Positions 3,742-53,131 are shown, counted from the first letter of the stretch. The stretch is DNA of 63,999 bases from a virus (IMGVR_UViG_3300030101_003107:1-63999); one strand, 5' to 3'. Program-made: numbers and translations. The notes: generated by a model from the letters alone, not told the origin.

Positions 3742-4209
3742 TTAATCGTAATCTATATATGTTATTGTTACCTCTTCGCCTTGCTCAATAGCTTTTGCAA
3801 TGCTCGGGTAAATACGTTTATACGCGTTGACAGACTTTCCAACAAACCCGTCTCTAAGTATAAGGTTGTTTTCTTGACTATCCCCAACGATAAGACACCC
3901 AGCAGTATGCTCATCAGTGTTTCCAGTATGAATAAGAATATACTCAAAACCAGGAACATCGACGACATGAAGCATACCACGATGTAAACCAGGATATTTT
4001 TTATCATATCTTGCATGGAAGCCACCTTCTTTTCTTAACTCAATACGATATGTACCTGCTGGTATTCTAGTTTCACCTTTTACTTTTAAAACACGATGTT
4101 CGTCTTCTAAAGTATAACACAAAAAATGTTTTTTTATGTCTGTTACTTCAAACAAAATACCATGTGTACAATCGGCTTGAGAACTAAATCTCAATACTTC
4201 AAGTTTCAT
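3742..4209 (-). CDS. DUF5675-like protein, candidate peptidoglycan-acting enzyme / endolysin
   Basis: CYTLED, TRIPAGTY, VPGFEYILIHTGNT..HTAGCLIVG with a His/Cys pair, as in L,D-transpeptidase-like folds. Confidence 0.75.
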   Translation of the reverse strand: MKLEVLRFSSQADCTHGILFEVTDIKKHFLCYTLEDEHRVLKVKGETRIPAGTYRIELRKEGGFHARYDKKYPGLHRGMLHVVDVPGFEYILIHTGNTDEHTAGCLIVGDSQENNLILRDGFVGKSVNAYKRIYPSIAKAIEQGEEVTITYIDYD

Positions 4210-5064: not shown

Positions 5065-6876
5065 TTATTGTTTTATAATTTTATGTTTTAATGTTCTGCT
5101 ATTTATTTCTATGTGTAAACTATATACACCAGGTGTTAGTGCAGATACATCTATTATATTCACCTGTTTTGCTTCTAACGTAACTTTACCTGTAATGTCA
5201 TATAATTTAACGTTAGCTATTTTATTTATTCTTATAGTTGATTTAACTGGATTAGGATAAACCTCAGTGTTTATTATTAGTTCGTTTAAACTTGTAGGTC
5301 CTGACCACCCGTTTTGACAGTAAGTATACAAATCATCGCAAGTATAATCCCAAGTATTATCACAACAATACGGATCAACATCTATAACCCACTCAAAACA
5401 AGCGTCAGGCACATAGTATATATCACCACTAGCACAACCAGCAGAATAATAACACGAACTATCAGCGATGTTTGCTTCAATATTATAATTAATAGCGGAC
5501 GGATCAGTGCAACCAGGCACTGGATAAATACAAGAATTATTATCAGTGTTTGCAAGAGCATTATAGTTTATAGCCGTGCTATCAGTACAACCATTTATTA
5601 TTTCAATACAGCTACCGTTGTCTGTATTACATGTGTCACAATAATTAAAAGCTGTAGGATCTATACAGCCAAATATAAGCGGTATACAACTACCGTCTTC
5701 TACGTTAGCGTTAGGATTATAGTTAAAAGCATCGTCGTCCATGCAACCTAAAACTACTTCAATACAAGATCCTTCAAGCTCTACATTTGCTTCAGGATTA
5801 TAATTAAAAGCCGTAGAGTCCATACATCCAAGAACTATTAACGTCTCACAAGAGCCATTATCAAAATCTGCTTCTTCATTATATTCAATGTAGTTTGGAT
5901 TCATGCAGCCAGCTATATAGTAGCAGCTGCCGTCATCTGTATTAACGCTGTCATTATAGTTTAAAGCTGTTTCGTCTATACAGCCGTATGTTCTGTCTAT
6001 ACAATTATTGCCACAGTCAGGATCACCAAATATATAAACAAAAGGCGGTATAGGATTTACAAACCCACCTTCTATTTCTATAGCTACATGTTCTTCAGAA
6101 TATATACTATAGCCGCACTGTACGGCTGTAAAGTCTGATTGTTGAGTTATATTAAACTGTACTCTTACAGGCTCTGATATATTTAAGTTAAAAGTAAACG
6201 CAGTATCAAAGCCTTCTTCTAAAGTAAATTGACCTATAAAATTATTGCCCTGATAAACCATTAAGTATGAGCCAGCCCAACCGTTGCCTGCTAAATCTGT
6301 TAACTCTAACGTGTGAGTACAACTATCTACAAACTCATCAATGTTTGCCATAGGATCATAATTGAAAGCTAGTGAGTCTGTACAACCAAATAGCTTTGGT
6401 GTAAAACACATACCTGTGTCTACTGTTGCTTCTGGCAAAAACTCTAAAAAGTCGTCTTGCATACATCCATACACGGGTGGAGGTGGCGCACAATCTTCTA
6501 ATGTAAACCCATGAAAAGCAGCATAACCAAAATCTGCAGAGTCTGGTTGTACTAAAGTATCACCGCAATGAACTACATAATATGACCCATCTTGACCACC
6601 CCATAAACTACCAGCCATACCATCTCCGTACTGATCAGCTATGTTAAATAAATAATCACCGTTAGGTATGCATACTTGAATTACTTGCGGTTGATAATCT
6701 ACTATATCAACATAAGGCCCACCAGTAGCAATAGTGTCTTCTAGCGGTGTAATAATAGCCCAAGAAGTTTCTTCTGGATATTGATCAGGATTAATAATTA
6801 TATTTACGTAAGTACCGTTTGGACATTGCGCAAACGCTATATTAACACATAATAATAATGTAATTAAATATTTCAT
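5065..6876 (-). CDS. Secreted Cys-repeat protein with T9SS type A C-terminal sorting domain
   Basis: Signal peptide MKYLITLLLCVNIAFA|Q; nine GCxDxxAxNY-type repeats; C-terminal VYPNPV...LYDITGK...IDVSALTPGVY...KIIKQ. Confidence 0.9.
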   Translation of the reverse strand: MKYLITLLLCVNIAFAQCPNGTYVNIIINPDQYPEETSWAIITPLEDTIATGGPYVDIVDYQPQVIQVCIPNGDYLFNIADQYGDGMAGSLWGGQDGSYYVVHCGDTLVQPDSADFGYAAFHGFTLEDCAPPPPVYGCMQDDFLEFLPEATVDTGMCFTPKLFGCTDSLAFNYDPMANIDEFVDSCTHTLELTDLAGNGWAGSYLMVYQGNNFIGQFTLEEGFDTAFTFNLNISEPVRVQFNITQQSDFTAVQCGYSIYSEEHVAIEIEGGFVNPIPPFVYIFGDPDCGNNCIDRTYGCIDETALNYNDSVNTDDGSCYYIAGCMNPNYIEYNEEADFDNGSCETLIVLGCMDSTAFNYNPEANVELEGSCIEVVLGCMDDDAFNYNPNANVEDGSCIPLIFGCIDPTAFNYCDTCNTDNGSCIEIINGCTDSTAINYNALANTDNNSCIYPVPGCTDPSAINYNIEANIADSSCYYSAGCASGDIYYVPDACFEWVIDVDPYCCDNTWDYTCDDLYTYCQNGWSGPTSLNELIINTEVYPNPVKSTIRINKIANVKLYDITGKVTLEAKQVNIIDVSALTPGVYSLHIEINSRTLKHKIIKQ

Positions 6877-9385: not shown

Positions 9386-12300
9386 TTAATCGTGAGCGTA
9401 ACATCTTGTTTTAGGCTTGTTTACCATGTTTTTACATCTAGAACTATCACGCTTAATAAAGCTGCATTGATTTTTGTTTTGTTTTTTCTCTTTTTTCTTT
9501 TGCTCTTTTAGCTCATCTTTAGCTTCTTGCTGTGCTTGACGTTTTAAATCTAAGTATCTTACGTATTGATTTTCTTTACCTTTGTTTACAACTACACGCT
9601 CACCAACTTGTAAATCCCAAGCACTCCAACCTAGCGTTAAAAATGCTCTTTGCATTGCTGTGTTTTCTTGATTTAAAGCTTCTCTAATGTTGTCCGTTTT
9701 TCTAAATAACCTATCAAGCGGAACATTAGTAGCAGCTGTTGTAACTTTTGCTGTAGCATCCCAAATAGGATTATTATAATCGAACGTGTCCATGCTACCC
9801 ATTATCTCTCTATTAAATTTATAAGCATTTAATGCACTATAAACTTTTCTAGCTTTTGATCCCATAGGCGGCGAAACTTGCACAGCTTCAACTACTACTT
9901 GACCATAATCAGCCCTAGACTTTCTTTCAGACTCAGAAATAAATCTCATTATAGTGTTTTTAATAGTTGCAACTGCAGCGCCTGCTACACCAGAGCCTCT
10001 TAGTATTGTATCAAGCATACTATTTGCTATTCTTGTAGCTCTTTGGTCTAGCGCGTCGTCTTCTTCGTCGTCAAAGCTTAAAGCAAATATAGCTGATTGC
10101 AAGGCAGAGAATATAACATTTTGTATAGCGCCGTAATATAATATTCTTGACACGTTACTTCTCCAGTCTCCACGATTATTAATTAAATCTCTACTAGCTT
10201 TTTTAATTAAACGATTATATTGCATAGGTGTATTAGCGAAAGCTAATATAAGACGACCTAATGGACTAGCTTGCTGTTGTGATATACGATCAGGTCTAGC
10301 CGACTGCTGAGTTTCTTGAGCTATTTCTTGAAAATCTAAAAAAGCTTTTTCTTCTGCAGCTTTTTTATTCATACCTTGCTTCGTATATGTTTCAACTCTA
10401 TTTCTATAAAACGTAGATCCACCAGAAGCAATAGCAAAACTATCAGCTATTTGTGTAGGTAAAAAACCTTTTTTAAGCAAATACGCAAGCGCAGCTTTAG
10501 CTTTGTTCTGAGCGCCTGCTACAGCATTAGCAAGTTCAGCTTCATTTACATTTATTTGTAAACCTGCTCGTCTAGCTTTTAAAAAGTCGGAGTTAAATAA
10601 CGTTGAAAAGTCTGACCAATATTGTTTTTGATTAGCAAAAGCTTTACCAGCTTTAAATATATTGTTATCGTCAAAGTTTATAAAGTTAACTGTAGACAAA
10701 GTTTGTAGTACAGCTGATCTTGCGTTAAAGAACATTATAGCGCCAACAGATCCGTTAACCCAGTTTGTCCAAGCTTGGCCATAAGTTCTACCTGAAGATC
10801 TATTTGTACCGTTTTCCATACGATATAATGAATCTTCTAAAGCGCTTCTAAATCTAGAGCCATATATAGCTTCTATTTTATTCATATTTTCAGTAGAAAA
10901 TATAATATTTTTATTTTCTATAAACTCTGCTAAATATTGTTTTCTACCTATTTTGTTTACAATGTTTTCTAAGTCAGAAGCTATACTTTCTACACTCCAG
11001 TTTTCACTTGGCTCTATCCAACCTTTATCTCTTTTTGATACAATGCTTAAAGCATCTGCAAATGTTTTTAAGTCTTGATCTGTGTTAACAACGTTTTTTA
11101 AATAATTTAAATCTCTTTTAGATATACCTGGAACTTCAAAGCCTGCTTTATCAAATAAATAAACTCTTATAGCATTATCAAAAGTAAAACCAGTATCTTT
11201 TTCTATTAACTTACCTAATCTTTTTTTAACGTTAGGTATTTCTTTTCTAAGTAGTTTATAATCGTCTAATATACTCATACGAGCTTCACTCATTTCACGA
11301 TCAGCTCTACCAAACGGATCTAGTAAAGCTTTTTTCATAAACTCCATATCAGCATCACCTTGTTTGCCTTTGCCGTAAAAGTCATATAATAAGCCCGCAA
11401 AGTCTTCAGCTGACGGTGGTACAAAAAATCTATATCTACCTATGTTTTTACCACGCTTTTGACCAACAACTCTTGAAAATATTTTTTCAGCTGCAACACC
11501 TTTTGTTCGCTCGATCATTTTGTTAAACTCAGAGCTCATGTCTTTGCTAAAGTTTATTCTTGCTTGTACGGATTTACCTTTAACATCTAGCTGATCAAAT
11601 ACATGTTTAACAGCTTCTACATTAGGTAAAGCATCGTCTACAAAGTACATATCATTATATCCCTCTTGATATTTTTCTAAAAACCAAGCTGCTTTAGCAT
11701 CGCCTTCGCTTTTACCAAGTCCAGTTATATTTTTTAAAGGTATATTAATACCTTGGCTTTTTAACCACTTGTGTATAGGTTCAGCAGCTTCTTGCATACG
11801 AGCTGTTAAAACAAACACATTACTAGGACCATACTTTTTTATTTGGTTTTTCATCTTCTGAAGTAGTGGCCCTTCTTTACCTCCTCTTACGTTTGCAAAA
11901 TCAGAAAAGTCAAATTCATAACCATCAGCCGCTAACTTAGGTCCATCAATAGGCCATTTGTCAGAAGGTATTTTAACTGTTTCGCCATCTTTAGTTGCTG
12001 TAACAAAGTTTTCACCGTCTATAATTAACGTTTCGTCAAAGTCAAAAGTAGACATACCTTTTGAGTCTTTGCTATAAGCTAGCACAGGTCTAACGCTAGA
12101 TATGTTTTGACTAATGCTAGAGTTTTGTTTTATTTCAGCATTTGGCTTAATTTTGTTTCTAGTTTGTAAAAAAGTATCTAAGTTGTTTTTAGCTTGAGAA
12201 GCTGTAATATCTCCATTTAAAAACTGATACAAAAGATTTTGTTGAGTGCTAATAGTTGATGCATCGCTATGCAAGCTAACGTCAACGCCTAAACCAAACT

Positions 12301-15300
12301 CTTCTGCTATAGTTTCACCTCTAGCATTTATTAAGTAGTTAGGATTTATTCCACCATCGTTAGCGTTTACTAATGGATTAAAATATCTTATCCACTTAGA
12401 TTTTAATCCTAACAATATATCAAGATGATATTCTAGCGGCGGTGCTTGAACAAAATTAAACTTAACGCCATTAATTTCACCTTTAAGCTTTTTATCGTAA
12501 GATAAAGGCAAAGATCCTTGAGCATAGTTTTCAAAAGCGCCATCAATATACAACTCTAAGTTGCCTTGCAAAGCTCTATTAAATAAAAATTTAGCAAAGT
12601 CGCTAGCTGGTAAAGTGTGTTCTTCTACGTTTTTTTCATTAAGAGTATTAGTAAATTCTAATGTTGATATAACTCTAGCAAAATGACCCATGTTCTGAGA
12701 AGTAGAAGCAAACATAGTAGCAAAATAAGGTATAGTCTCAGGTTGAGCTTGCATTATCTCTTGTATTTTAAGCCATACCTTTTTAGCGCCTATTATTGAT
12801 GATTCGTGATACTCAGAGTCTTTTAGTTTTTCCGCAACCGTTTTACCAGTTGATTTGCCGTATTTACCTACCGATGAAACAGCTGCAGTTATATCTGGAT
12901 CAGAAGGGGCAAACTTAGCTCCTTCAACAGAGCTTAATAAATCTTGTTTACTTGTAAAAGCAAAGTTTCTTTTTCTACCATTAGCTCCAGCTCCAGCAAA
13001 AGTTCCTACAGTTAACATTTCTATTGGAAAGTTAGGTGCTATGGTATTTTTTACAAAGTCTCTATAATTTTGAAGATCTGCGTCGTTATTAACTATGTCT
13101 ATAGGTTGAACATCTTGAGTAGCGGCAGCAACAACGCTTTTCCAAGCTTTGTTTTCTTGTCGAAGCATTTTGTTTAAGTCTGTATCTTCTTTAGAAAACA
13201 TATAGTTTGCCATACCGTCAGATATGCTAGTTAGCTCTGGATTTTGTCTTCTTATTTCTTGATTAGTTATAACTTTACCAAGTAAATCTGCAAGTGCTAT
13301 AACTCTAGCCGATGTATTTCTATTACGTGTTGGCTTACCGTCTATAATATCTATAAGCTCTAATAACTCTGAGTCTTTAATGTTTGTTCTTTTGACCTGA
13401 GTGCGCAAACCTGCTTTAGTTTTAGCTCTAGAGTCTCTTTTATTATAAAGTGTCTCTAATACAGTCTTAGGCACTCCTGTTGCTTTACCTGATGAATCAA
13501 AGCCTTGCGGTAAAGCTTGTATTACTAAAGCGGCATTAGCTTTAAACCATCTTTGCGCTGAAGCTACTTCTGCGGCTGTAAGATTTGCTTTGCTCTTAAT
13601 TTTATCAGGTGATATACCTAACAATTTACCAATAGTATTTCTAGCGGCATTTGGCACGCTCTTAAAATTAGACAATGTAGAAAACTTAGTTTCTTGTTCG
13701 TTTACCTCTGTAGTAACTTCATTTTGTATGTTTAACCTATCAGCTAATACTATATCTTTAGTTTTTCTTTCTGGCTGTTGCTCTACAGTTTCTTCAGCCG
13801 CAACACCTCTAGCCTCTGTTACATCATCTGTAAACTCTTCGCCTAACACTCTACGTGAAGCCTCAATAGCTCTAGCAGGTAAAAACTTATTTATGTAAGC
13901 AGCTAATGGTACGCCTGACTCAGGATTATATTTTTGTATAAGATCAAATATACCTCTTTCACCAGTGTTTATTTCATCAGTTAATAATTGTCTATCAAAG
14001 TTAGGCGCTTCAGATCTTCTCTGCACAAGTCTATTTACTATAGGTGCAAACTGATCTATAATACTCATAGCACCACCTACACCTTGATCTTGGTATATTT
14101 GTTGTACTCTATCAGAGGCTTCTTTTGAAAACTGTTGAACATCACCTGGTTTTATATCAGTAGGTAGTATGTCACCTTTAATTCCTTTAGCAGCTGATTT
14201 AATTAAATCTTTGTTTATATTGCCTGACTCTACAGACTCTACATAGTCTCTAAAAAAGTTAAATACATCTTGATTAGTGTTAAACTTATATTCTAAACCA
14301 GTTGTATTTTTAGTAAATCGCTTGACAACATCTTTTAATCTACTAAATAAGTTATCGTTAAATTTAATATCACCATTTTGAACTGCTTCAGCTGCTAGTG
14401 TAAATACTTCTTCGCTTTTACCTTCAGCTTCTGTATATTGATCTAATCTTCTTTTAAAATCAGTACCTTCTATAGCTATATTGTTTTCATCAAAGCTTTC
14501 TAATAAAGCATCACCAAATGCTTTTCTTGCGGCTTGATTACCTTGCAAAGTAGCAAAAAGCAAAGCATGTCCAAACTCATGTGTAAGTGTAGTCATAACG
14601 CCGTCTCTTAGCTCAGACTCTTGATTTATAAATATTTCTAAACCACCTTTACCGTCTTGTCTTATAGCACCATATCTAGTAGACTCACCTTTTAATATTT
14701 CTTCTCTTTTTCTAAACTGTTCGCTTTGAGATCGTTTTTCTTTTCTTGCTTCTGCTATTTCTTCTTGTGTAGAACTAGGATCGTTTATTATTTCGTCCAT
14801 AGCTTGAATAGCACCTATATCAAACGAAGCTTGTTCATCGTCTCTTCTCCAGTTAACAAAGTCATTAGAATTACCTTTACGTATATCTACATTAACGCCT
14901 TGTTGTTTTAAAGCTTCGGCTTGCAGCGACACATTTTCAAATAACTTTTCTCTACGAGAGTTTTGAGCGCTTTCTATTAAGTTAAAGTTATCTTGATTAC
15001 GTTTATTTATTTTATCTAAAATTAACTCTTTGTCTTTATCAGTTTTAGCTCTTCTTAGTTTATTTTTTTGCTTGTGAATAGCATCTAAGTTTTGAGCATA
15101 AGTTTTAAGTTGAGAATTACTTAAAGAGTTAAAAGTTCTATATAAGCTTTTTTTATTAGCTACTTGCGCGTTGTTAAGATCTTTTATTTCCTCTTGTATT
15201 CCAGCTTTTTCAGACTCTTTAGCTGTTTCTAACTGTTTTACTTTAGCATCAATTTGCGTGGCTATATCAAATTGTATATTTTTAAACTGTTGTGGCGCTA

Positions 15301-16765
15301 AATAATTATATACTTGTTCTACTTCTTTTGGTTTTGTAGCAACACTAGTTACTGATGCAGCAGGACCACCTAGCAAAGCACCTATACCAGCATCATGTAT
15401 AACATTTGTAAAAAACTCTTTACCACCTATCTCGTCGTCAAATATAAACATATCTCCAAGCTGCTGCAAAGTTTTATTCGCTCCTTCTGTAGCACCTTCT
15501 GTTACAAAACCACCACCAAACTTTGAAATAGCGTTAGTAGTATAACTTCTAATATAGTCTGTAACAGCTTTTTCGCTAGCACCTACTCTTCTTAATCCTA
15601 CTACATCTCTAAATAATCTAGCTCCCAAATATTCTGTACCCCACTCAAACAAACCATCTGTACTACTAGTTAAATATAACTCTCCAATAGTAGCGTCTGG
15701 TCTTTCTTTTAAGTTTTGTTCAAAACTACTACCAGCTGCAGAAGTACCTAAAGCTATACTACCATACATTGGAAAACCAATTGCTAAAGCCAAAGAAGGT
15801 ATGTTAGATAAAGCTTGCTCAGAAGCTACTTTAGCAGCGTTAGGATAATCACCTTTTTTTATAAGATCAATATACGTCATGGTGTTGCCGTCTTCATCTC
15901 TAACGTTAGTCATGTGACTTCTTAGTTTAGCTGAAGTGTATTTTAGCTGTTCTGTAGGTATATCTGGATATGTTCTTTGTACAATCTCTAGTGGTAAACC
16001 TGTTGATTGAGCTATTAAAGGTTTTAAGCCATAATTGTTTACAAAATCAACCATACCAGCGGTTAAATCTAGTGTTACTGCTTTTACACCAGACAAATAA
16101 GGAATTAAAGCTTTAGGAATGTTTGAGTTTGCTGATAGTTTAATTTTTTCGGCTTCTGCTATAGCGTCTTGAAGATCATAACCTGTTTTTTTATAAATCT
16201 CTTTACGCTCGTTTAAATCTAGTTGTCTAGCTTCAAGATCTTTGCCAGCTTCAGCTGCTTTAAAAAAATTATCTCTAAGCGTATAATATTCGTCTAAAGT
16301 TTCTTGAGGAAAGTTTGCAGGAAGTTTTTTATTTTCATCTAATTGCAAAGCTATGTTTTGATTATAAAAACCATCAACAACATCTTTAGCATTATTTAAT
16401 TTTTCAGTGTATTCTTCTATTGTTTTGCTTAGCTCTCTTTGTTGAACTTCTAAAGGCACTATATCAACTTCAGGTAAAGTTACGCCTTTTATAGTATCGT
16501 CTTCTACTCTTGCTCCGGGCACAACGTCAAAACCTGAAGCTTGAACTTCTGCTATAGTTTCAGGATTATTTGTGTAAGTAGGAAACTCCGATAAAGATTT
16601 TGCCGAACTGGATGCCGTACTTTCTGGCTCCGCAGGGGCATCCACTTTCTGGGGAGCTTGTTCTTTTTTTGTTTCGACGTAGTTTGTAATAAAGCCTTTT
16701 ATTTCATCATCAGACTTTCCAGCATCGATTAGTTTTTGAATTTCTAATTCTAACTCTTCGTTCAT
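9386..16765 (-). CDS. Giant virion/ejection polyvalent protein (zincin + sigma70-like + HAD + helical C-terminus + CCCH finger)
   Basis: Third gene of the post-tail ejection trio; HEFGH at aa 729; sigma region-2-like GIFDLIQKYNPESGVPLAAYI; HAD FDFDETL..LTAR..FVDD; terminal C-x9-C-x10-C-x2-H. Confidence 0.85.
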   Translation of the reverse strand: MNEELELEIQKLIDAGKSDDEIKGFITNYVETKKEQAPQKVDAPAEPESTASSSAKSLSEFPTYTNNPETIAEVQASGFDVVPGARVEDDTIKGVTLPEVDIVPLEVQQRELSKTIEEYTEKLNNAKDVVDGFYNQNIALQLDENKKLPANFPQETLDEYYTLRDNFFKAAEAGKDLEARQLDLNERKEIYKKTGYDLQDAIAEAEKIKLSANSNIPKALIPYLSGVKAVTLDLTAGMVDFVNNYGLKPLIAQSTGLPLEIVQRTYPDIPTEQLKYTSAKLRSHMTNVRDEDGNTMTYIDLIKKGDYPNAAKVASEQALSNIPSLALAIGFPMYGSIALGTSAAGSSFEQNLKERPDATIGELYLTSSTDGLFEWGTEYLGARLFRDVVGLRRVGASEKAVTDYIRSYTTNAISKFGGGFVTEGATEGANKTLQQLGDMFIFDDEIGGKEFFTNVIHDAGIGALLGGPAASVTSVATKPKEVEQVYNYLAPQQFKNIQFDIATQIDAKVKQLETAKESEKAGIQEEIKDLNNAQVANKKSLYRTFNSLSNSQLKTYAQNLDAIHKQKNKLRRAKTDKDKELILDKINKRNQDNFNLIESAQNSRREKLFENVSLQAEALKQQGVNVDIRKGNSNDFVNWRRDDEQASFDIGAIQAMDEIINDPSSTQEEIAEARKEKRSQSEQFRKREEILKGESTRYGAIRQDGKGGLEIFINQESELRDGVMTTLTHEFGHALLFATLQGNQAARKAFGDALLESFDENNIAIEGTDFKRRLDQYTEAEGKSEEVFTLAAEAVQNGDIKFNDNLFSRLKDVVKRFTKNTTGLEYKFNTNQDVFNFFRDYVESVESGNINKDLIKSAAKGIKGDILPTDIKPGDVQQFSKEASDRVQQIYQDQGVGGAMSIIDQFAPIVNRLVQRRSEAPNFDRQLLTDEINTGERGIFDLIQKYNPESGVPLAAYINKFLPARAIEASRRVLGEEFTDDVTEARGVAAEETVEQQPERKTKDIVLADRLNIQNEVTTEVNEQETKFSTLSNFKSVPNAARNTIGKLLGISPDKIKSKANLTAAEVASAQRWFKANAALVIQALPQGFDSSGKATGVPKTVLETLYNKRDSRAKTKAGLRTQVKRTNIKDSELLELIDIIDGKPTRNRNTSARVIALADLLGKVITNQEIRRQNPELTSISDGMANYMFSKEDTDLNKMLRQENKAWKSVVAAATQDVQPIDIVNNDADLQNYRDFVKNTIAPNFPIEMLTVGTFAGAGANGRKRNFAFTSKQDLLSSVEGAKFAPSDPDITAAVSSVGKYGKSTGKTVAEKLKDSEYHESSIIGAKKVWLKIQEIMQAQPETIPYFATMFASTSQNMGHFARVISTLEFTNTLNEKNVEEHTLPASDFAKFLFNRALQGNLELYIDGAFENYAQGSLPLSYDKKLKGEINGVKFNFVQAPPLEYHLDILLGLKSKWIRYFNPLVNANDGGINPNYLINARGETIAEEFGLGVDVSLHSDASTISTQQNLLYQFLNGDITASQAKNNLDTFLQTRNKIKPNAEIKQNSSISQNISSVRPVLAYSKDSKGMSTFDFDETLIIDGENFVTATKDGETVKIPSDKWPIDGPKLAADGYEFDFSDFANVRGGKEGPLLQKMKNQIKKYGPSNVFVLTARMQEAAEPIHKWLKSQGINIPLKNITGLGKSEGDAKAAWFLEKYQEGYNDMYFVDDALPNVEAVKHVFDQLDVKGKSVQARINFSKDMSSEFNKMIERTKGVAAEKIFSRVVGQKRGKNIGRYRFFVPPSAEDFAGLLYDFYGKGKQGDADMEFMKKALLDPFGRADREMSEARMSILDDYKLLRKEIPNVKKRLGKLIEKDTGFTFDNAIRVYLFDKAGFEVPGISKRDLNYLKNVVNTDQDLKTFADALSIVSKRDKGWIEPSENWSVESIASDLENIVNKIGRKQYLAEFIENKNIIFSTENMNKIEAIYGSRFRSALEDSLYRMENGTNRSSGRTYGQAWTNWVNGSVGAIMFFNARSAVLQTLSTVNFINFDDNNIFKAGKAFANQKQYWSDFSTLFNSDFLKARRAGLQINVNEAELANAVAGAQNKAKAALAYLLKKGFLPTQIADSFAIASGGSTFYRNRVETYTKQGMNKKAAEEKAFLDFQEIAQETQQSARPDRISQQQASPLGRLILAFANTPMQYNRLIKKASRDLINNRGDWRSNVSRILYYGAIQNVIFSALQSAIFALSFDDEEDDALDQRATRIANSMLDTILRGSGVAGAAVATIKNTIMRFISESERKSRADYGQVVVEAVQVSPPMGSKARKVYSALNAYKFNREIMGSMDTFDYNNPIWDATAKVTTAATNVPLDRLFRKTDNIREALNQENTAMQRAFLTLGWSAWDLQVGERVVVNKGKENQYVRYLDLKRQAQQEAKDELKEQKKKEKKQNKNQCSFIKRDSSRCKNMVNKPKTRCYAHD

Positions 16766-19161: not shown

Positions 19162-22100
19162 CTATTTGCTACTTTCAACAGCGTTTAGCGCTGCAGCAAA
19201 TAACTCAGATTTATTTTCAAAATCATTATTTCTCCAAACACATCTTGCATAGTAGCCTTTAACTCCAGAGTGTTCAACAGGATTTTGTGTTAATACAAGC
19301 AATATTGAGCTTATATCAACGTTATAATCATCTACAATAGGGCCTAATGCTTCAAATAGCTCAGGTGTAGATACATTTGTTGTTATTGACGTAGAATCAA
19401 AACTTACCACGCTTCCAAGATTTACAAATTGACCTACAGTTTCTGATGGAGGAATAACAGTTGGATTATCACCTACGGTAGTACGCATTACGCGCACGTT
19501 AACACCTTCTTGAATAACAGCCATGTTTATAATTCCTAAATCAAATGATATTGTAAAACCTAGGCTACCATCACTATTTTCTACAATGCTTGTTGGTATA
19601 CCTAAAGGAGCTATATATTTTTGAAAATCTTCACTGTCTGTAGATAAAGTATCACCTTGTTTATCGTCTATATTTACATGCATTAAATTATTATGCCATT
19701 TGTTTTCTTTATTCTTAAAGTTTATTGACATACCCTGCTCAAGATCTGTTGTAATTCTACTTATCCACCATCCATCTTTGTTTAAATTAGTAGATAACAC
19801 GCCGTCGTTATTGTTAGATATAATTCTAGCTTGAGTACCTTCATAGTTAGTATAAGTAAAGTCTTTTACAGTGCCAGGCATTTCGTTATAAACTAAAGCA
19901 ATTCTTGGCTCTTGACTACTAGGCTCTGATTGAAAATAACCTTCATAAAAGCCGTATTTAGCTACTACGTTGTCATGATGATAATGCTCGCTGCTAATAC
20001 TAAAATATTGATTTTTTAAACTATATCCTTGAGCATCTTTATAGTATGTTCTAAAAGAAGTCCAAGCGTTTAAGCTTTCGTCCCAAGCAATAGTCAAATA
20101 GCCAAAAATTTCATCTTCTATATCTGTAAGATCAAAGTTTCTACAAGATAAAAGATATTCGTTTTTATCAATATCATAACTTCCAAATATATAACTATTT
20201 TGATCTCTAGCGTCTGATAGTTGGTTTTTAAAATAAGAGTCCATACCTTGATCAGATATTATAGTCATACCATCTTTTGATAATCTTATAACAACACCAC
20301 GTTTGGCATCGGTAAAGTAAGATCTAAAACCATATTGAGCAAAAGACTCAGGATTATTTGATATACCATATTCACCGTCAAAAGCAACAGATTGACCTAA
20401 AACTTTATCAGTAGCTAATAAATCAGGATTACCATCAGCTTTAAATATTGCATCTTTTTGAGAAAGAACTTTTAAAACTTTATCTTCACAAAGAACTATT
20501 AAATCATTTGCTCTAGAGTATAGTTTTTGTATAAATCCGTGATCTGGATTAAATCTTTTAGTTATACCTAATGCTTCTATAAACTGATTAGTCTCGTTAA
20601 ATCCACTATAAGAATTATATATACCTGAAAATATTAAACCTTCACCAACCTTAATTTCAGCATAATCTTCATATATACTAGATGCCTTAACACCTTTTTG
20701 TATTCTAGCTCCATTAAAAGAGTTTTTAACAGTAGATATTTCTATACCGTTTCCAAAGCAGAAACAATTATAATAAGGTAAAGCTATAGGTGTAACTACA
20801 TCGTTTACTAAACTAAAGTTTGATAAATGCGTGTGTCTTTTTACAAGAATAGTATCACTATTAACAACGCTTTCTGCTACGGTAACGTATACGTGCTCTC
20901 CAACATTTAATCTTCCGCCTCTATGCTCTTGTATTTTTAAGACTAGTTGATCTGGATTAGCAGGAACAGTTATGGTTACAGGTTGACTTAAAGTTATTGT
21001 AGTATACAAAGCATCATTAATATTATGTCTACCAACATTAGTTGATACAGATGTTACTGTAATTGGAGTAAGATCAATATCGTCAAGAATACTAACCCCA
21101 CCATCGCCATCATTATCACTTGTATATAGTAGAGGAAAAGTAGTATCACCTACTTGAACAACGCTATTTAAACCTAAAGCGCCGCCTGGGCCTGGTATTA
21201 AAGCAGTATAATAATAAGCTTCTACCATACGACCAACTTTAATAAACTGTTCGTCAGTTTCATCGTCTAATACTATAGGATATGCTTGAGAAGCTTCATA
21301 ATATAAGTCTGTATCATAATTAGGTTTTGGCAATGTTTCAAATACACCTTGTGTTTTAGCTGTGTTCGGGCCAGGTAACGGGCCTACGTCATTGTTCACT
21401 ACTAATGGTCTATCAGTTTTTACATAAACAAAAAACTTACCTTCAAAAACGTTTGGATCATCGTCTAAAGCATCAATTAAAGCTTCAGGCACTTCATTTC
21501 TTATTCTTTGAACTTCATATTCAAGATTAAGATTGTCTGACTCATAGTTGTTTGTTACATTAGACAAATCAGGATCTGGTTGTCCAGATTTTCTATGAGC
21601 TCTTTTTTGTATTAGTATATCGCCTTCTTGAACTTTGTTTCTATGATCAGAACTAAATATTAAAACACTATTAGTTTTTTCTGTTAAGCTACTTGCTTGA
21701 GCTTCAACAGAAGCGTCATCTTCACCGTCAACATTTATAAAATGTCTAATTTCTTCTAATGGTAAAACATTATAATCTAAAGAAGTATCTTTAACAAAAA
21801 ATTTATATGACTTAGCCCAAGTTGGATGTGGGTTTTTAACTATTACAGATATTCTTTGTGTTTTTTTAGAGTCTTCTGGACTTACTTTTATAATAGCTTG
21901 TCTATTAGTTAAAACAGGTGTTTCTCTACCAAACTCATCTCTATAAACAATACCAACTTGATAAGATCTATAAGATTTAATAGACTCCTGTGGTACGCCA
22001 AAGTTAGGGTTTGTTCCAGCGAAAGCTTCTTCAAAAACTTCAATAGCTCCATCGTCTGAGCTAGCACCTATAATTATTGGGTTACCATCAGGTCCAAGTA

Positions 22101-25100
22101 TTTCATTTATTTCTTGATTAACATAGGTGTAAAGTCCTACTTCAAGATTAACTTTTATATCAGAAGAAGATATAATTTCGTTATTAAAATCAAGTACTGT
22201 TTCTACTAAGTTGTAGTCTTTTAAGTAATTACCATAAACAACTCTATTAGCAGTAACTTCTTGTGCTTTAGCTGATTTTGGCACAGAGTCAAAAGGTCTT
22301 AATATTTGATTAGGATCTATTGTTAAACCTAAAGTATTAGCATTAAAAGGATGTAAGCCTGTATAAGATCCGTTTGCTGGTAAATTATATTCACCATCTC
22401 TAAAATCATATTTTTTTACAGCATATATATTATTTGCTTCTTCACTTTTAACTACCAACTCTACAGCTTTTACATCATGTGGTAAATTTTTTGGTGTCCA
22501 GTCTATTAATCTTAAATCTTTTATTTCATTAATTAAAGATATGTAATAGTTTGGCCAATCTATTTTTTGATTTAAAGTTCTCCAAATAACTGTAGTAAAA
22601 GGCGCAAAGCCAGAGTATTCGTTGTCTTCGTATTGATACCTGTAAGAAAATCTTAACATAGCTTCTCGTAAAGACTTTTCATCAGCTAATCTGCCTGCGC
22701 TGCTACCTTCATATTGAGAAGCTAAACTAACAGACCAAACTTGAGGAAGAGGTGGACCATAAAATTTTGGATTACCTTGAGAGTCAACTAGCAAACCATC
22801 GCGGCCCCAATTTTGATTAGTAGTCCAATAAGGTGATCTTCTGCCTTTGTAATCTTTAGGTAACATTGCTGCGTTTTTAGTACTGTCACCTTCTCCAATA
22901 ATAATAGGGCCTTCATCGCCTGGTCTTACATACTTATTGCTTAAATCAACTCTTAACGATGGATCTAAAGGATCTTTAGCGTTGTTTTCATCTATTTGAA
23001 TAGTAATAATATATTGGCTAATAAAATGCTCTGTAGAGAAAAAACTTGGCGGTAAGTCTACTACTGTACCGTCATCTAATACTATTTCTTCTCCACCAGG
23101 ATCAGTGCCATCAATTATAGTTTGATCAACTAACCCATCATTTAAAAATATAAATTTATCTTTTAAATCAGTATAAACATTACCAAGGTTATCAGTGAAA
23201 CCTACATTGTTAGGAACACCATTTATAACTGCACCAGCTCCTGCTGGGCCTTCAGGCCGCATGTTTACATGCTCTATTTTTGTTATTGTAGCTTTTACTA
23301 AATCAGCAAACCCGTCGTGTCTTCTGCCTGCAAACCGTGTACTATTTAAAAAATTAGCTCCTAGTGGATTTGCAGGGCTATTGAAACTAAGCTCTTGAGT
23401 ATCTCCAAAGTCTTGCCCACCTTGATTGTCTATTGTCCAAAGATCTTCATCTACAAAACCTCCTGTTTCTTCTAAAACCGAAGCAGGTGTGAAAAAGCTA
23501 TTGTCGTCTTCATCTGTATAATAAACATCAGTATATCTACCAACTGCGTTACTTCTTCTAGTATTACCTTGACCTTCTAATACAATTTTGTCACCAACAC
23601 TAAATCCATGAGGTTGAACTACAAATCTTCCAGGCCCTGTAGGTCTATATAAATTATTTTCGTTTAAATCAATTCTACCATTATGCACAAAATCAGCCAT
23701 TGGACCATCGTCAGGATCTCCACCTAAACCCCAATATTCGCTAATAGCAGCTAAATTTTGCGAAGGGCCTGATATATTAGCTTGTGAAAAAAGACCACCT
23801 AAATGATAAGCTTTAGCTATACCGTGCTGATTTGCATAAATAGGTGGGGCAACATCACCATCAAGAAGATACCCTCCAGGCATTTGATTTGTGTAGTGTA
23901 TAACATCACCTTCTGATCCAGCGTTACCACCAAAAGAACTGCCAGGACTAAAAGATACTAGCACGTTTTCATTTACAGAGTTAGCACCTACACCTCTAGT
24001 ACCACCTGCGCCTGAATAATTTTCCCAATAAAACGGCTCTAACGCTTGATTAAAGACACCATCATCTTCAGTAATTCCTGAAGCCATACGCATTGGACCA
24101 ACTGGAATAATATGTCCATCAGTTGGATCATTAAAAAAACCAAAAAGTGGTCCAAGCTCTTGGTAAGAGTCCATACCAGCGTTTAAATAATTTTTAAACA
24201 ATGGGTAAGGCGCTGATGGTTGTGAGTTTGCTTGTACATTTTCAGCTATAGCAGTTGGAAAAACTAAAGACTCTATAGTATATCCGCGTGGATCGTCTTG
24301 ATTAAAAATGTTAGCTGGAACACCAAAAAATCCATTGCCAGCTCCCATTGGATCTAGCGCGCCAGTTCCTGGGGCAGCAGTACCGTAAATACTTCCTCTA
24401 GATGCTTTTACATAAGCGCCCCAAGATAAAGTGTCAGGAATATCAAGAGTCATGCTGTTTCTAAAGTCCATAGCTTGGTTGCCATTTACATCAGCATACG
24501 GAATAAAAGATCTGAAGTTATAATAAGTATCAGGGCCTAAGCCTACTAACGGCTCACCCAGTCCATCGTTAGTAATTAATCCACCGGCTTCGTTATAAAA
24601 ACCAGCTTCGTTTAAAAATGCAACTGCAAACTGTAATGTTTTACCACTTGCGTGGTTTGGATGTATAGGAAAAGGATGCGTCATAACACCTTTAGTTGGA
24701 CCAACTGTTTTAACGTCTGAGTCGCCAACCACAGCACCCACATCAGTTAACACTTTTAAATGCTCTTCTGGATTTGGTCTTATAACAGTACAGTGAGACT
24801 CTATAGTTCCACCTAGCCCTGTATTTATAGCATTGTTTGCTATAACAGCGTTATCGTGATACCCGTTAAACTGCCAACCAGGAACACCTTGAAAGCCTAA
24901 ATTGTTATCAGAGTTTTCTCTTAATAATCTAGTATGAAAAAGTCTTCTATCTGTAAGCCAGTCTGGATATACCGACTGTTGATCAGATAAAGTACCTACT
25001 TTAGATCTATTTATTTGTATTTTTTTAGGTTCGTTTTTATTATCTGTAAAAAATATTAAACCATCAAATACATTTATACCTGTTATATATCTTGAGTAAT

Positions 25101-26709
25101 CAAAATCTAATATTCTTTTAGATACAAAAGCAAAGAAAAAATTATCCTCATCAAGAGCTATGTCATCAGGAATAACTACATTATCTGCAAATCGATTAAA
25201 ATCATCTTTTATGTATACTCTGTAGTTAACTCTATCAACATAGTCAACATAAAAAGCATCTATTAAAGTATTTATACCAGCACCTTCAGTTAAAGAATTA
25301 GAAACAGCAAAATCAGTGCCTACTATTGTGTCATACTGAAGAATACGCATGTCCTCTCTAATGTCTAAGTCACGCATATTCAAACCATCGTCAGGAAGTT
25401 GTATGTATGTTCCTAATTCATTCATGGGCTGGCCTATGAAAACAGCTGGAGTTCTTATTTCATAAACATCGTTAAAAACTAAATCCATGTCTCCATGGCC
25501 ATTGTTTTCTTCTGATATTCGCTGCATAGCTCTATTAGGCTCATACTCGTATATAGCGTCAGCTCTAACAACAATGCCTCTAGCGCCAAAAGATTCTGGA
25601 TCAAGATCTTCTATAGCATCAATACCACCGCTAAAAAATTGTCGAGTATCTTCTCTAAATTGATCTATATGAGTAAAAGGATCGTGTTCACCCGTCAAAT
25701 TATCTGTTAAGTGATTCCATGTTCCAGGAATTGCAGTAATTAAAGCTTGATCTACAGTACCTCTATTAGGACCTGTTAACTCAATAAGATTACCATCTTC
25801 TCCAGCGGTAGGTTGAATTATTGTTACAGAGCTTCCGTCTAATTCAACGTTAACTCCTATGCTACTTAGAGCATTATAAAAGTTTGTTGCTTTTCCTTCT
25901 GCTGAAGCTGCTGAAGCTACATTTATAGTTACTAGCTCTCCTGCTTCATCAAAAATATGTCCATTAGGAAATGATATGTTAGTATAACTATAAGGAAAAA
26001 GCGGATTAGCTTGTGCTTCAGTTGTAAAAGCGCCATAAACAATAGTTATTTGACTAAAACCGCTAGATGTTGCGTTGTTTAACGTAAACCTCATTTGAGG
26101 ACATCCACCAATTGTTCCTGCGTCCCAAGGTCCTGAGCCATCAATTTGATAATCTGGATTACCTATTGCGGCTTCCCACCAGTTGCTGCTAAGTTGACTA
26201 CCAAAATCACTTGGACCTACTGGTCCTTCGTTTATCCAGCCAGGTTCGTTTGATTCAATATTTTCGTTATGTAATCCATATCTACGCGCAACTGCGTAAT
26301 CATAAAGAGGGCTTATGCCTACGTAATTATTAAAATTAATTGTAAATCTTGCTCTTTCACCAAAGCCTTCACCTTCTAGTCTAAAGGCATTAACATAAGC
26401 TGAGTCTTTAACGAAATGATAAGCATAATCATTTGTTCTATCTACAGCTGTACCTACTACTCTAGGTTGAGTAAAACCTACTCTTCTAGGGCCAAAAGTG
26501 TTTAGCTCTCCATCTCCTTGATGTCTCCATCTATCTTGAGCAATAACTTTAGTATTTGCTCTAACAGTTTCTAACGAACCTTCGTTTCCTTCTGAAGAAC
26601 TACTAACCCGTATGTTTATAGCTTCACGATATAAACCTTGACCTACTAGCCTCTCATCAAGGTCAAGATTCATTCCACCTTTAATAAAAGTTCTTTTTAA
26701 TTCAGCCAT
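19162..26709 (-). CDS. Tail stabilization / nozzle (muzzle-type) protein with large insertions
   Basis: GGMNLDLDERL, FFTDNKNEPKKI, RFSYRYQYEDNEYS, NRVVYGNY, RSYQVGIVYRDEFGRETPVL, YGISNNPESFA, FKNKENKW: motifs recalled for the P22-gp10-like tail protein of Bacteroidota podoviruses and crAss-like phages. Confidence 0.8.
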   Translation of the reverse strand: MAELKRTFIKGGMNLDLDERLVGQGLYREAINIRVSSSSEGNEGSLETVRANTKVIAQDRWRHQGDGELNTFGPRRVGFTQPRVVGTAVDRTNDYAYHFVKDSAYVNAFRLEGEGFGERARFTINFNNYVGISPLYDYAVARRYGLHNENIESNEPGWINEGPVGPSDFGSQLSSNWWEAAIGNPDYQIDGSGPWDAGTIGGCPQMRFTLNNATSSGFSQITIVYGAFTTEAQANPLFPYSYTNISFPNGHIFDEAGELVTINVASAASAEGKATNFYNALSSIGVNVELDGSSVTIIQPTAGEDGNLIELTGPNRGTVDQALITAIPGTWNHLTDNLTGEHDPFTHIDQFREDTRQFFSGGIDAIEDLDPESFGARGIVVRADAIYEYEPNRAMQRISEENNGHGDMDLVFNDVYEIRTPAVFIGQPMNELGTYIQLPDDGLNMRDLDIREDMRILQYDTIVGTDFAVSNSLTEGAGINTLIDAFYVDYVDRVNYRVYIKDDFNRFADNVVIPDDIALDEDNFFFAFVSKRILDFDYSRYITGINVFDGLIFFTDNKNEPKKIQINRSKVGTLSDQQSVYPDWLTDRRLFHTRLLRENSDNNLGFQGVPGWQFNGYHDNAVIANNAINTGLGGTIESHCTVIRPNPEEHLKVLTDVGAVVGDSDVKTVGPTKGVMTHPFPIHPNHASGKTLQFAVAFLNEAGFYNEAGGLITNDGLGEPLVGLGPDTYYNFRSFIPYADVNGNQAMDFRNSMTLDIPDTLSWGAYVKASRGSIYGTAAPGTGALDPMGAGNGFFGVPANIFNQDDPRGYTIESLVFPTAIAENVQANSQPSAPYPLFKNYLNAGMDSYQELGPLFGFFNDPTDGHIIPVGPMRMASGITEDDGVFNQALEPFYWENYSGAGGTRGVGANSVNENVLVSFSPGSSFGGNAGSEGDVIHYTNQMPGGYLLDGDVAPPIYANQHGIAKAYHLGGLFSQANISGPSQNLAAISEYWGLGGDPDDGPMADFVHNGRIDLNENNLYRPTGPGRFVVQPHGFSVGDKIVLEGQGNTRRSNAVGRYTDVYYTDEDDNSFFTPASVLEETGGFVDEDLWTIDNQGGQDFGDTQELSFNSPANPLGANFLNSTRFAGRRHDGFADLVKATITKIEHVNMRPEGPAGAGAVINGVPNNVGFTDNLGNVYTDLKDKFIFLNDGLVDQTIIDGTDPGGEEIVLDDGTVVDLPPSFFSTEHFISQYIITIQIDENNAKDPLDPSLRVDLSNKYVRPGDEGPIIIGEGDSTKNAAMLPKDYKGRRSPYWTTNQNWGRDGLLVDSQGNPKFYGPPLPQVWSVSLASQYEGSSAGRLADEKSLREAMLRFSYRYQYEDNEYSGFAPFTTVIWRTLNQKIDWPNYYISLINEIKDLRLIDWTPKNLPHDVKAVELVVKSEEANNIYAVKKYDFRDGEYNLPANGSYTGLHPFNANTLGLTIDPNQILRPFDSVPKSAKAQEVTANRVVYGNYLKDYNLVETVLDFNNEIISSSDIKVNLEVGLYTYVNQEINEILGPDGNPIIIGASSDDGAIEVFEEAFAGTNPNFGVPQESIKSYRSYQVGIVYRDEFGRETPVLTNRQAIIKVSPEDSKKTQRISVIVKNPHPTWAKSYKFFVKDTSLDYNVLPLEEIRHFINVDGEDDASVEAQASSLTEKTNSVLIFSSDHRNKVQEGDILIQKRAHRKSGQPDPDLSNVTNNYESDNLNLEYEVQRIRNEVPEALIDALDDDPNVFEGKFFVYVKTDRPLVVNNDVGPLPGPNTAKTQGVFETLPKPNYDTDLYYEASQAYPIVLDDETDEQFIKVGRMVEAYYYTALIPGPGGALGLNSVVQVGDTTFPLLYTSDNDGDGGVSILDDIDLTPITVTSVSTNVGRHNINDALYTTITLSQPVTITVPANPDQLVLKIQEHRGGRLNVGEHVYVTVAESVVNSDTILVKRHTHLSNFSLVNDVVTPIALPYYNCFCFGNGIEISTVKNSFNGARIQKGVKASSIYEDYAEIKVGEGLIFSGIYNSYSGFNETNQFIEALGITKRFNPDHGFIQKLYSRANDLIVLCEDKVLKVLSQKDAIFKADGNPDLLATDKVLGQSVAFDGEYGISNNPESFAQYGFRSYFTDAKRGVVIRLSKDGMTIISDQGMDSYFKNQLSDARDQNSYIFGSYDIDKNEYLLSCRNFDLTDIEDEIFGYLTIAWDESLNAWTSFRTYYKDAQGYSLKNQYFSISSEHYHHDNVVAKYGFYEGYFQSEPSSQEPRIALVYNEMPGTVKDFTYTNYEGTQARIISNNNDGVLSTNLNKDGWWISRITTDLEQGMSINFKNKENKWHNNLMHVNIDDKQGDTLSTDSEDFQKYIAPLGIPTSIVENSDGSLGFTISFDLGIINMAVIQEGVNVRVMRTTVGDNPTVIPPSETVGQFVNLGSVVSFDSTSITTNVSTPELFEALGPIVDDYNVDISSILLVLTQNPVEHSGVKGYYARCVWRNNDFENKSELFAAALNAVESSK

Positions 26710-42050: not shown

Positions 42051-42308
42051 TTAATCTACTAGTACAATATCACCTGCTTTGATAACAAAATAAAGCTTAC
42101 CTTCAAATTCTACTCCGTGACCAGCGTGTTTATCATACCAGACAACATCACCATCTTTTATAAATTCTATTAAATTACCAGTTGATATAACTTTACCTTT
42201 AGAATATCTAACGTCTTCGTCAGCATCTTCTTTAATAATTAAGCCAGCAACTTTCTTTTCTGTTTGTTTTATCTTATCGATAACTACATAATAATTAACT
42301 GCCTTCAT
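42051..42308 (-). CDS. groES: Co-chaperonin GroES
   Basis: KVAGLII mobile loop, KGKVISTG, IKDGDVVWY, GDIV; adjacent to groEL. Confidence 0.9.
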   Translation of the reverse strand: MKAVNYYVVIDKIKQTEKKVAGLIIKEDADEDVRYSKGKVISTGNLIEFIKDGDVVWYDKHAGHGVEFEGKLYFVIKAGDIVLVD

Positions 42309-52519: not shown

Positions 52520-53131
52520 GAGAGAAACCTAACATACCTAAATAATAAACGTTTAATATACAGGCGACATCCAGTATCAGATAAACCAGACATTGATACT
52601 AAAGAGTTTATGTATTTTGAAAACGGTACGCATCAATGCTACGAGCTATTTAGATCAACAGCAAAGATTACTACGTATCGTTCGCTTAAATGGCATTTAC
52701 TAGTACTTTGGTATTTAAACCCTAACCTCAACCAAGACGACTTTATACAACTAGCTGAATATATAGTACACAAGCCAAATGGCTTTGTAAGTTTTAACGT
52801 ATCAGAACGTTTGCTAGAAAAAGTTGTCTACGAGGTTAGCATGTCTGACCTTGATCGTCCACCTAAAAATAAATTACGTAAAGTTATATTTAAACCGTTT
52901 AGTGGCTTAACAAAAGAAATGAAATTATCTATTGTAGGCCAGCTAGTTGGTCAAAGTCCTAGAGTTTGTTCTGACGACATATATGAAGTTATGATAGATA
53001 TGCATGACATGGGCAAAAAGATTACAATAGGACGTATCGCAGGTCTGTTAGACTGTTCGTCACGTACAATATATAGACACATGTGTAACGAACTTAAAAA
53101 AGAAAAAGAATTACTTAACCAACAACTATGA
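52511..53131 (+). CDS. DNA-binding protein with C-terminal HTH (possible initiator or regulator)
   Basis: ITIGRIAGLLDCSSRTIYRHM helix-turn-helix. Confidence 0.75.
   Translation: MSYERNLTYLNNKRLIYRRHPVSDKPDIDTKEFMYFENGTHQCYELFRSTAKITTYRSLKWHLLVLWYLNPNLNQDDFIQLAEYIVHKPNGFVSFNVSERLLEKVVYEVSMSDLDRPPKNKLRKVIFKPFSGLTKEMKLSIVGQLVGQSPRVCSDDIYEVMIDMHDMGKKITIGRIAGLLDCSSRTIYRHMCNELKKEKELLNQQL

Follow-up and report, generated by a model that had tools for sequence, protein, structure and literature searches.

Introduction

The polyproteins of RNA viruses are cut by a protease embedded in the chain, at a short site that recurs along it. An analogy to them has been drawn for the polyvalent proteins of phages, whose zincin-like peptidases are predicted to process these proteins (Iyer, Burroughs, Anand, de Souza and Aravind 2017; PMC5512222). 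Here, we analyse P0001, a giant protein encoded in a virus record of 63,999 bases (IMGVR_UViG_3300030101_003107, CheckV completeness 99%; the window, in what follows, is this whole stretch), which carries four copies of a short motif, [FY]SK[ED], downstream of an embedded HExxH. Like the polyvalent proteins with a zincin-like metallopeptidase described in PMC5512222, P0001 is giant and combines unrelated enzymatic modules with one embedded, predicted peptidase of the HExxH...E type; what differs is the presence of a specific junction motif with lineage variants, whereas the passages of that paper that bear on these proteins name no cleavage sites. Giant polyvalent proteins are widespread in phages and plasmids, and self-cutting by the zincin has been an idea without a defined site since 2017; a cleavage-site definition for polyvalent proteins was not found in the literature searched, which covered papers without their supplements.

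The likeness to RNA virus polyproteins lies in one protease in the chain, in the same partly degenerate site at each junction, and in a grammar that is specific to the lineage yet uniform within the genome. P0001 differs from them in that it belongs to a double-stranded DNA (dsDNA) tailed phage, in that its putative protease is a zincin and not a cysteine or serine protease, and in that cleavage is here something we infer. Among phage proteins, the zincin-bearing P1 DdrB is processed before packaging and, together with the N4 virion RNA polymerase, it illustrates that zincin-bearing giants are delivered with the phage DNA and that cut and uncut outcomes both occur (PMC5512222). Neither of the two shows sequence similarity to P0001, for which tblastn against 50,697 phage records gave no match.

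Two further kinds of system invite comparison. The head-maturation protease gp245 of phage SPN3US cuts packaged and ejected proteins at a short motif, and its sites were mapped by semi-tryptic peptides in mass spectrometry (PMC10052503). There, as in our reading of P0001, a short motif marks the cut of proteins of the capsid interior. T4 gp21 and phiKZ gp175 are further head-maturation proteases of this type. These enzymes act in trans on many head proteins, mostly at N-terminal propeptides, whereas the motif of P0001 is confined to a protein with a putative peptidase of its own, and the scanned open reading frames (ORFs) of its phage include no recognised head protease. In the polymorphic toxins, a conserved motif (VENN in CdiA) precedes the variable toxin domain. 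Both there and in P0001, a short conserved motif stands where a conserved part meets a variable or exchangeable one, but VENN marks a single junction before a C-terminal cassette, while the motif of the P0001 family recurs four to seven times and its copies co-vary.

The junction motif coincides with module boundaries

P0001 carries a motif that stands at module junctions, is conserved, is under selection at the level of the residue, accompanies inserted or relocated modules, and co-varies between its copies. The four copies (Table 1) had been pointed out in the original prediction, which was made from the sequence of the window alone, and their residues, coordinates and contexts are all correct; besides the absence of further FSK or YSK, P0001 has no other [FYW]SK and no other SK[ED]. 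Elsewhere in the 64-kb window, [FY]SK[ED] occurs in no six-frame ORF of at least 80 aa. The muzzle-like giant encoded at 19162-26709 lacks the junction motif, and its counterparts in 7 related loci have at most two loose [FYM]SK each. By composition, 0.14 copies of [FY]SK[ED] are expected in P0001 and four were reached in 2 of 5000 shuffles, a figure that flatters the finding because the pattern was picked after looking. The significance of the motif comes from the relatives and from its position, and not from the P0001 sequence itself.

Position was evaluated in an alignment of 121 proteins, namely P0001 and its 120 best matches, which were chosen on aa 700-1800 and hence are biased to that region. 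Conservation along this main alignment falls into blocks: aa 700-1200 are conserved, 1200-1550 variable and 1551-2400 conserved again. A change-point scan over the whole of P0001, comparing the conservation of the 25 residues before and after each position, gave its three largest change points at 1192 (-0.44), 1555 (+0.40) and 879 (+0.33), which correspond to sites 2, 3 and 1. When 2857 degenerate 3- and 4-mer patterns with three to eight occurrences in P0001 were scored in the same way, 12 touched all three change points and all of these were variants of the motif, while none of the 2845 unrelated short patterns did so. The view that the motifs mark boundaries between modules is thus borne out by sites 1-3, which are the top three change points and are shared as a set by motif variants only.

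Table 1. Junction motifs, modules and reading frame of P0001 in the window
Feature	Residues (aa)	Coordinates	Strand	Basis or remark
Junction motif 1, FSKE	879-882	14120..14131	-	conservation change point +0.33
Junction motif 2, FSKE	1190-1193	13187..13198	-	sharpest conservation break of P0001, -0.44
Junction motif 3, YSKD	1564-1567	12065..12076	-	11 residues before DFDET
Junction motif 4, FSKD	1739-1742	11540..11551	-	conserved in 121 homologs; not a conservation break
N-terminal region, no junction motif	1-689	14699..16765	-	alignment; length and sequence vary among homologs
Zincin-like module, ends in variable Lys/Gly-rich linker	690-878	14132..14698	-	HExxH and downstream Glu
Conserved module	880-1192	13190..14128	-	conservation block; 'sigma-like' in the original prediction, unconfirmed
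Variable module	1193-1563	12077..13189	-	alignment; conserved EEH..PA, W.RYFN and GINPN motifs
HAD-type phosphatase module	1565-1741	11543..12073	-	motifs DxDxT, TAR, K, DD
C-terminal module, most conserved part	1742-2459	9389..11542	-	conservation
Giant ORF P0001	2459 in all	9386..16765	-	ORF call; synteny in related viral contigs

A fifth, related site was noticed in the C-terminal module. It reads IIFSTEN (aa 1956-1959, 10889-10900, minus strand), its I, F and S are invariant in 15 divergent sequences, and in some homologs it reads FSKE; a moderate conservation step (1945, +0.20) lies nearby. This site may be a further junction within the C-terminal module, or an ordinary element of the fold.

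The motif is selected as a peptide and rewritten in concert

The motif is kept in homologs, with F-S-K present in most of the 121 proteins and the D/E of position 4 less conserved. At site 1, F is found in 49 and M in 23 of the proteins, S in 106 and K in 91; the corresponding counts are F 114, S 113 and K 91 at site 2, Y 49, S 72 and K 80 at site 3, and F 115, S 117 and K 113 at site 4. In 15 divergent viral loci, Ser1191 of site 2 is the sole invariant column of 51 aa, with Phe in at least 90%, and at site 1 of divergent loci the conspicuous positions that follow a variable linker are just S, K and a single Val.

To these we added a second set, for which the module bracketed by sites 3 and 4 served as the profile in a search of 1.84 billion cluster representatives; it returned 1947 proteins at E <=0.001, the 150 listed among them being giants or giant fragments. 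The new representatives from this search (n=137, or 136 in some counts) read FSK at site 4 in 80 cases, FSE in 11, FSR in 10, FSN in 6, FSQ in 4, FSL in 3, FSA in 1 and otherwise in 22. At site 3, [FYMW]S[KRQ] occurs within 30 residues before a conserved HAD Gly in 77 of 136, compared to 6.8% of background windows, and its distance to that Gly varies from 3 to 30 residues, so that the motif slides within the linker. It also turns over: distant clades have a doublet, FSK and FSR about 18 residues apart, both of which were lost in the clade of P0001, where a YSK is found a few residues further on instead. Such sliding and turnover in a linker are typical of a short linear motif and not of a fold element. 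Over all 137 representatives, [FY]S[KR] was seen 532 times against 214 expected, with V/I enriched at -2, K/M/Q at -1 and S after the K/R. The family consensus of the junction motif is [VIL]-x-[FYM]-S-[KR]-[DES], with Ser as the fixed anchor.

The Ser codons of P0001 are TCA, TCT, AGC and AGC at sites 1 to 4, and site 2 alternates between TCN and AGY among loci while Ser is retained, which argues for selection on the residue and not on a nucleotide word. A nucleotide-level signal, such as a frameshift site, a repeat or a recombination word, was excluded by this switching between codon families. Internal translation starts, or scars of fused gene starts, were rejected as a general cause, as Met precedes the motif at site 2 only (105 of 121); in the representatives, Met stands at -1 in 46 of the 532 instances, and among 53 window ORFs two start with MSK and none with M[FY]SK.

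The strongest result of the analysis is the concerted change of the junction motifs. Among the 30 of 136 representatives that have the strict motif at neither site 3 nor site 4, many share one other peptide at both, and the same peptide was then recognised at sites 1 and 2 of divergent lineages (Table 2), these two sites being placed by eye from the HExxH and conserved flanks and sites 3 and 4 by script. Ser is the only residue common to all rewritten junction peptides. Representatives with the motif at site 3 tend to have it at site 4 too (Fisher p 0.0018, odds ratio 3.4), and the K/R state is correlated between the two sites (p 0.044), both statistics being uncorrected for phylogeny. As four non-homologous module ends change alike in each lineage, the pattern points to a single reader with drifting specificity and not to fold constraints or an ancient duplication.

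Table 2. Junction peptides, read by eye, in lineages with rewritten motifs
Protein	Site 1	Site 2	Site 3	Site 4
P0282	LKFSETE	VRFSETI	VSFSETP	VKFSETM
P0346	VKASEGV	AAFSEGL	QNFSEGV	INFSEGL
P0299	ILASQDL	ALASKVL	TMASKSL	ALASKDL
P0334	SFGSVDL	ALASIDL	SMASKNL	ALASKDL
L020	ALGSKDL	ALASKLI	GFASKDL	ALASKNL
P0349	STLKSSR	VTLFSKR	TTLKSAR	ITLKSER
P0377	TRSQNPT	KLSENPE	RSSENPT	KLSENPS

The motif accompanies inserted and relocated modules

The motif was also followed where modules had been gained or moved. Both the HAD module and the beginning of the C-terminal module are present in 366 proteins; 0-24 residues separate them in 336, and 11 carry an insert of at least 40 residues. The motif is found on both sides of the insert in 9 of these 11; of the other two, P0196 has partial copies and P0212 none. 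After the common insert (about 165 residues) come, in order, a ..K[FSK]S of its own, a duplicate of the HAD tail of 27-30 residues and a third copy of the motif. A second module (SHREAYE...) precedes the HAD in P0256 and P0294 and follows it in P0104, and always starts directly after IKFS[KR]. P0294 has seven copies of [VI]KFS[KR]S, all of them downstream of its HExxH, where 0.001 are expected and none of 2000 shuffles reaches that number; P0256 carries four copies, two of them in tandem at a distance of seven residues. The original prediction had suggested that the junctions are points at which cargo domains are swapped. This was upheld to the extent that new or relocated modules are bounded by the motif; wholesale swapping is rare in the sets examined, in which the order from the zincin to the C terminus is mostly fixed.

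A single HExxH accompanies the junction motifs

In P0001 the zincin-like module has HEFGH at aa 729-733 (14567-14581). Across 16 divergent sequences the two His and the Glu of this motif never vary, and at least 90% have a further Glu some 55 residues downstream, at a position that is E in 112 of the 121 homologs. HExxH stands in the aligned column in 102 of the 121. We examined 17 of the other 19, of which 15 have one HExxH nearby and 2 are short fragments without it; left out were P0011 and P0012, homologs of 2300 aa with scores near-identical to that of P0010 and the same four site motifs. Exactly one HExxH is found in 102 of the 106 representatives that have at least 1100 aa upstream of the HAD, and the four exceptions are two proteins with HDxxH, one fragment, and P0325, which has no HExxH. 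In L020, 86% identical to P0325, HEVLGH is an instance of the HEXXXH form that has been described for some polyvalent-protein peptidases (Iyer et al. 2017, PMC5512222). Loss of the zincin was never seen, every full-length member retaining one HExxH or a near variant. Since nearly all full-length members have one upstream HExxH and the sites co-vary, the putative zincin is linked to the sites, indirectly.

Other peptidases were sought in the same phage. Pfam and/or PHROGs scans of 25 window ORFs recognised none. A Prp-type protease was considered and rejected, PF04327 giving no match in the phage; the idea had come from what we take to be a likeness of the motif to the L27 cleavage motif.

Candidate cleavage by the embedded zincin and its alternatives

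Cleavage in cis by the zincin at the junction motifs, which the original prediction had proposed, is in our view the best mechanism, with a probability of roughly 0.55 as judged from the sequences. P0001 would be organised like a polyprotein, in the order N-terminal region, zincin, conserved module, variable module, HAD phosphatase and C-terminal module. The [FY]SK[ED] copies would represent one short linear motif: every junction on the C-terminal side of the zincin has one, and a single factor would recognise them all. That divergent lineages rewrite all junctions together implies one common reader, most likely the single upstream zincin, to which the junctions would bind in extended form, to be cut at the Ser or beside it. 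A hydrophobic residue immediately following the scissile bond is a frequent preference of zincins and would place the cut before F/Y/M; the conservation pattern fits a cut after that residue too. The cuts would be made while the protein is still in the capsid or once it has been ejected into the host, and would free the modules as separate proteins: a zincin-bearing N-terminal part, the conserved module of 311 residues, the variable module, the phosphatase of 175 residues and the C-terminal module. We thus infer from the pattern of the sites a protease as the reader and this zincin in particular, as well as the place of the scissile bond and the time of cutting.

A bolder version of this reading, tentative and to our mind somewhat short of even odds, is that P0001 is a true polyprotein of a dsDNA phage, whose own zincin would cut a Ser-anchored motif at every junction, with protease and sites co-evolving by lineage (FSK, FSET, FSEG, LASK, TLKS, SENP). 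Any module between two sites would then be a releasable injected effector, and the motif would make this the first phage polyvalent protein whose cleavage-site code can be read. If this is true, a P0001-type protein is a plug-in delivery scaffold, and the family shows how a marine Bacteroidota phage delivers several enzymes from one gene and offers a way to tell where cargo modules start and end in thousands of metagenomic proteins that lack annotation. The family supplies named residues, natural variant motif sets and clear predictions for mass spectrometry.

Several observations weigh against cleavage by the zincin. When all degenerate 4-mers are allowed, 64% of 200 shuffles of P0001 hold some equally improbable pattern, the family alignment contains many conserved tripeptides with three occurrences, and the recurrence of the motif within the P0001 sequence alone is not significant. 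Site 4 is no conservation break (|delta| 0.14; 17% of positions are as high), both its flanks being conserved, and SVQARINF before it may, if P0001 is like other HAD folds, be the last beta-strand of the domain. No junction motif lies between the N-terminal 689 residues and the zincin module. Of 136 representatives, 59 lack the strict motif ahead of the HAD and 30 have it at neither of sites 3 and 4. As for the peptidase, the zincin module has no significant Pfam match, so that its assignment is a prediction from the HExxH and the Glu; with 16 members scanned, the best matches were DUF5700 (E 0.0049) and Peptidase_M78 (E 0.021), each in 2 of the 16 and far under the cut-offs. No simple rule was found that links the two variable residues of the HExxH to the motif variant. 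Finally, the zincin-bearing N4 virion RNA polymerase is packaged uncut (PMC5512222), and an embedded zincin therefore need not process its carrier.

The alternative that survives best, although we consider it unlikely, is a docking motif that is not cut. The junction peptide would form a beta-strand and bind one non-protease partner, for which the capsid interior, the portal or muzzle, the phage GroEL or a host factor are candidates, and the chain would stay intact while packaging, unfolding or ejection is organised. Concerted change needs a common reader, but nothing marks that reader as a protease; [VI]-x-[FY]-S-[KR] shows the strand-like alternation of hydrophobic with polar residues, a GroEL is among the gene products of the phage, and the N4 giant is packaged uncut (PMC5512222). 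However, the sites lie exactly at module ends, copies are present at both ends of inserts and tandem copies stand 7-30 aa apart, all of which fits the release of units better, and the one element that accompanies the motif throughout is the zincin of the same chain. The other function named in the original prediction, a signal for unfolding or translocation, is conceivable as well.

A second alternative keeps the cleavage sites and assigns them to a different protease of the host or the phage, the zincin acting elsewhere, for example on host proteins or the cell wall. It draws on the same evidence of cleavage type as the zincin does, and the link between zincin and sites is one of co-occurrence only; the peptidase has also been considered as an effector against host proteins (Iyer et al., PMC5512222). 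We regard it as improbable. Neither the 25 scanned ORFs nor the Prp search yielded another phage peptidase, a host protease leaves the lineage-specific motif variants unexplained unless hosts differ in step with their phages, and among the virion proteins the motif is confined to P0001, which sets it apart from the sites in substrates of head-maturation proteases.

The motifs could also be recombination scars or handles, left from the insertion or shuffling of modules and not needed by the protein. Post-HAD inserts carry the duplicated HAD tail of 27-30 aa including the motif, and P0256 has tandem copies. This explanation appears very improbable, as Ser is kept across the TCN/AGY switch with no shared nucleotide word, orthologous sites should diverge independently after one ancient event and yet change in concert, and inserted modules carry the motif outside the duplicated flank (e.g., SPRFSKSS). 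Chance, or ordinary structural capping in which four unrelated domain ends share a helix-cap-like [FY]-S-K-[DE], would agree with the shuffles, the recurring tripeptides and the continuous conservation around site 4, but is hardly credible given the position of the motif at the change points, the seven copies of P0294 against 0.001 expected, and concerted rewriting in at least five lineages, which is unexpected from fold constraints of unrelated domains.

The HAD-type phosphatase and the other modules

Sites 3 and 4 bracket a unit in which all four HAD motifs are found, as had been anticipated for an enzyme to be excised between them; the spacing of the two sites is 175-199 aa in 103 of 121 proteins, with a median of 175. 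Motifs I-IV occur in order and are invariant in 16 sequences (D11, D13, T15, T90, K127, D146 and D147), with DFDET at aa 1575 of P0001. The HAD module has no Pfam match, and its best PDB profile match is the phosphatase domain of polynucleotide kinase-phosphatase, at E ~1.

In P0039, P0041, P0043 and P0191, a P-loop kinase of AAA_33/Zeta_toxin type is nested in the HAD unit directly after DxDxT. There is no junction motif around the kinase, which forms one functional unit with the HAD. This nested arrangement recalls polynucleotide kinase-phosphatase and hints at repair of RNA or DNA ends as a task of the cargo.

The region of aa 880-1190 had been described as sigma-like, and this was not confirmed: no sigma family of Pfam was found in 16 members at E <=1, and hhalign against the sigma gene of the same phage gave a probability of 0.3%. 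PF04542 (Sigma70_r2) finds only another gene of the phage (match 53227-53454) and not aa 880-1190, for which the leads are weak (a Sigma70_r2 cluster at an Atlas cosine of 0.93, and PDB 8b3z with E 0.19). The separate gene in question, of 250 aa (53128-53880, plus strand), matches Sigma70_r2 with E 2.6e-5 (24.3 bits with its neighbours in frame), which means that the phage has an ordinary sigma-family factor in a gene distinct from that of P0001. At the C terminus of P0001 lies a Cys-rich tail, C..RC..C..HD (9386-9480, minus strand), which is DUF5763 in relatives and a weak match to a primase zinc finger in P0001.

Locus and family of P0001

P0001 is a polyvalent and probably capsid-packaged protein. 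Several unrelated domains in one very large phage polypeptide, the criterion for polyvalent proteins, are represented by its conserved blocks, the module with HAD motifs and the module with HExxH. On the minus strand, the genes follow the order terminase, portal, several virion proteins, a muzzle-like giant of 2515 aa, two smaller genes and then P0001, and the gene order around P0001 is the same in 7 related viral contigs. The neighbouring giant (19162-26709, minus strand) matches PF25731 crAss_MUZ (Crassvirus muzzle) with 37.7 bits against a cut-off of 27, and also phrog_14478. By the large terminase subunit, TerL, the nearest phages are podophages of Flavobacterium, Cellulophaga and Tenacibaculum (87 records).

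P0001 itself has no significant match in Pfam or PHROGs, and Pfam at E <=0.1 gave nothing beyond two sub-threshold, chance-like matches, with no LPD family; its relative P0039 has LPD14 at 18.7 bits, under the 27-bit cut-off. No relative was found in the PDB by sequence, and profiles of five modules and of the whole family gave nothing significant against the PDB. The metagenomic family is nonetheless very large, with 2588 proteins at E <=0.001 among 8000 scored candidates. Splitting of genes at the motifs was looked into as well: the 120 shorter homologs resemble contig-end fragments beginning at an internal Met, from which we draw no conclusion, and the giants are unsplit in 24 of the 24 related viral loci inspected.

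The nearest deposited relative by terminase, MW202828.1 from freshwater, encodes a giant of 3859 aa with two HEFGH motifs (L009 741-12320). This giant bears the name 'reticulocyte binding/rhoptry protein' in the record; it does not resemble P0001, and the junction motif does not recur in it. The annotation of MW202828 includes groEL and a 10-kDa co-chaperonin; in the window, a chaperonin gene at 42295-43863 (minus strand) matches Cpn60/GroEL PF00118 with E 4.9e-59 and phrog_5725. The C-terminal end of a 603-aa protein (5065-6876, minus strand) matches PF18962, a sorting domain of type IX secretion (E 2.1e-11), which is unusual in a phage and fits a Bacteroidota host. A protein of 155 aa encoded at 3742-4209 on the same strand matches DUF5675 with E 5.6e-28.

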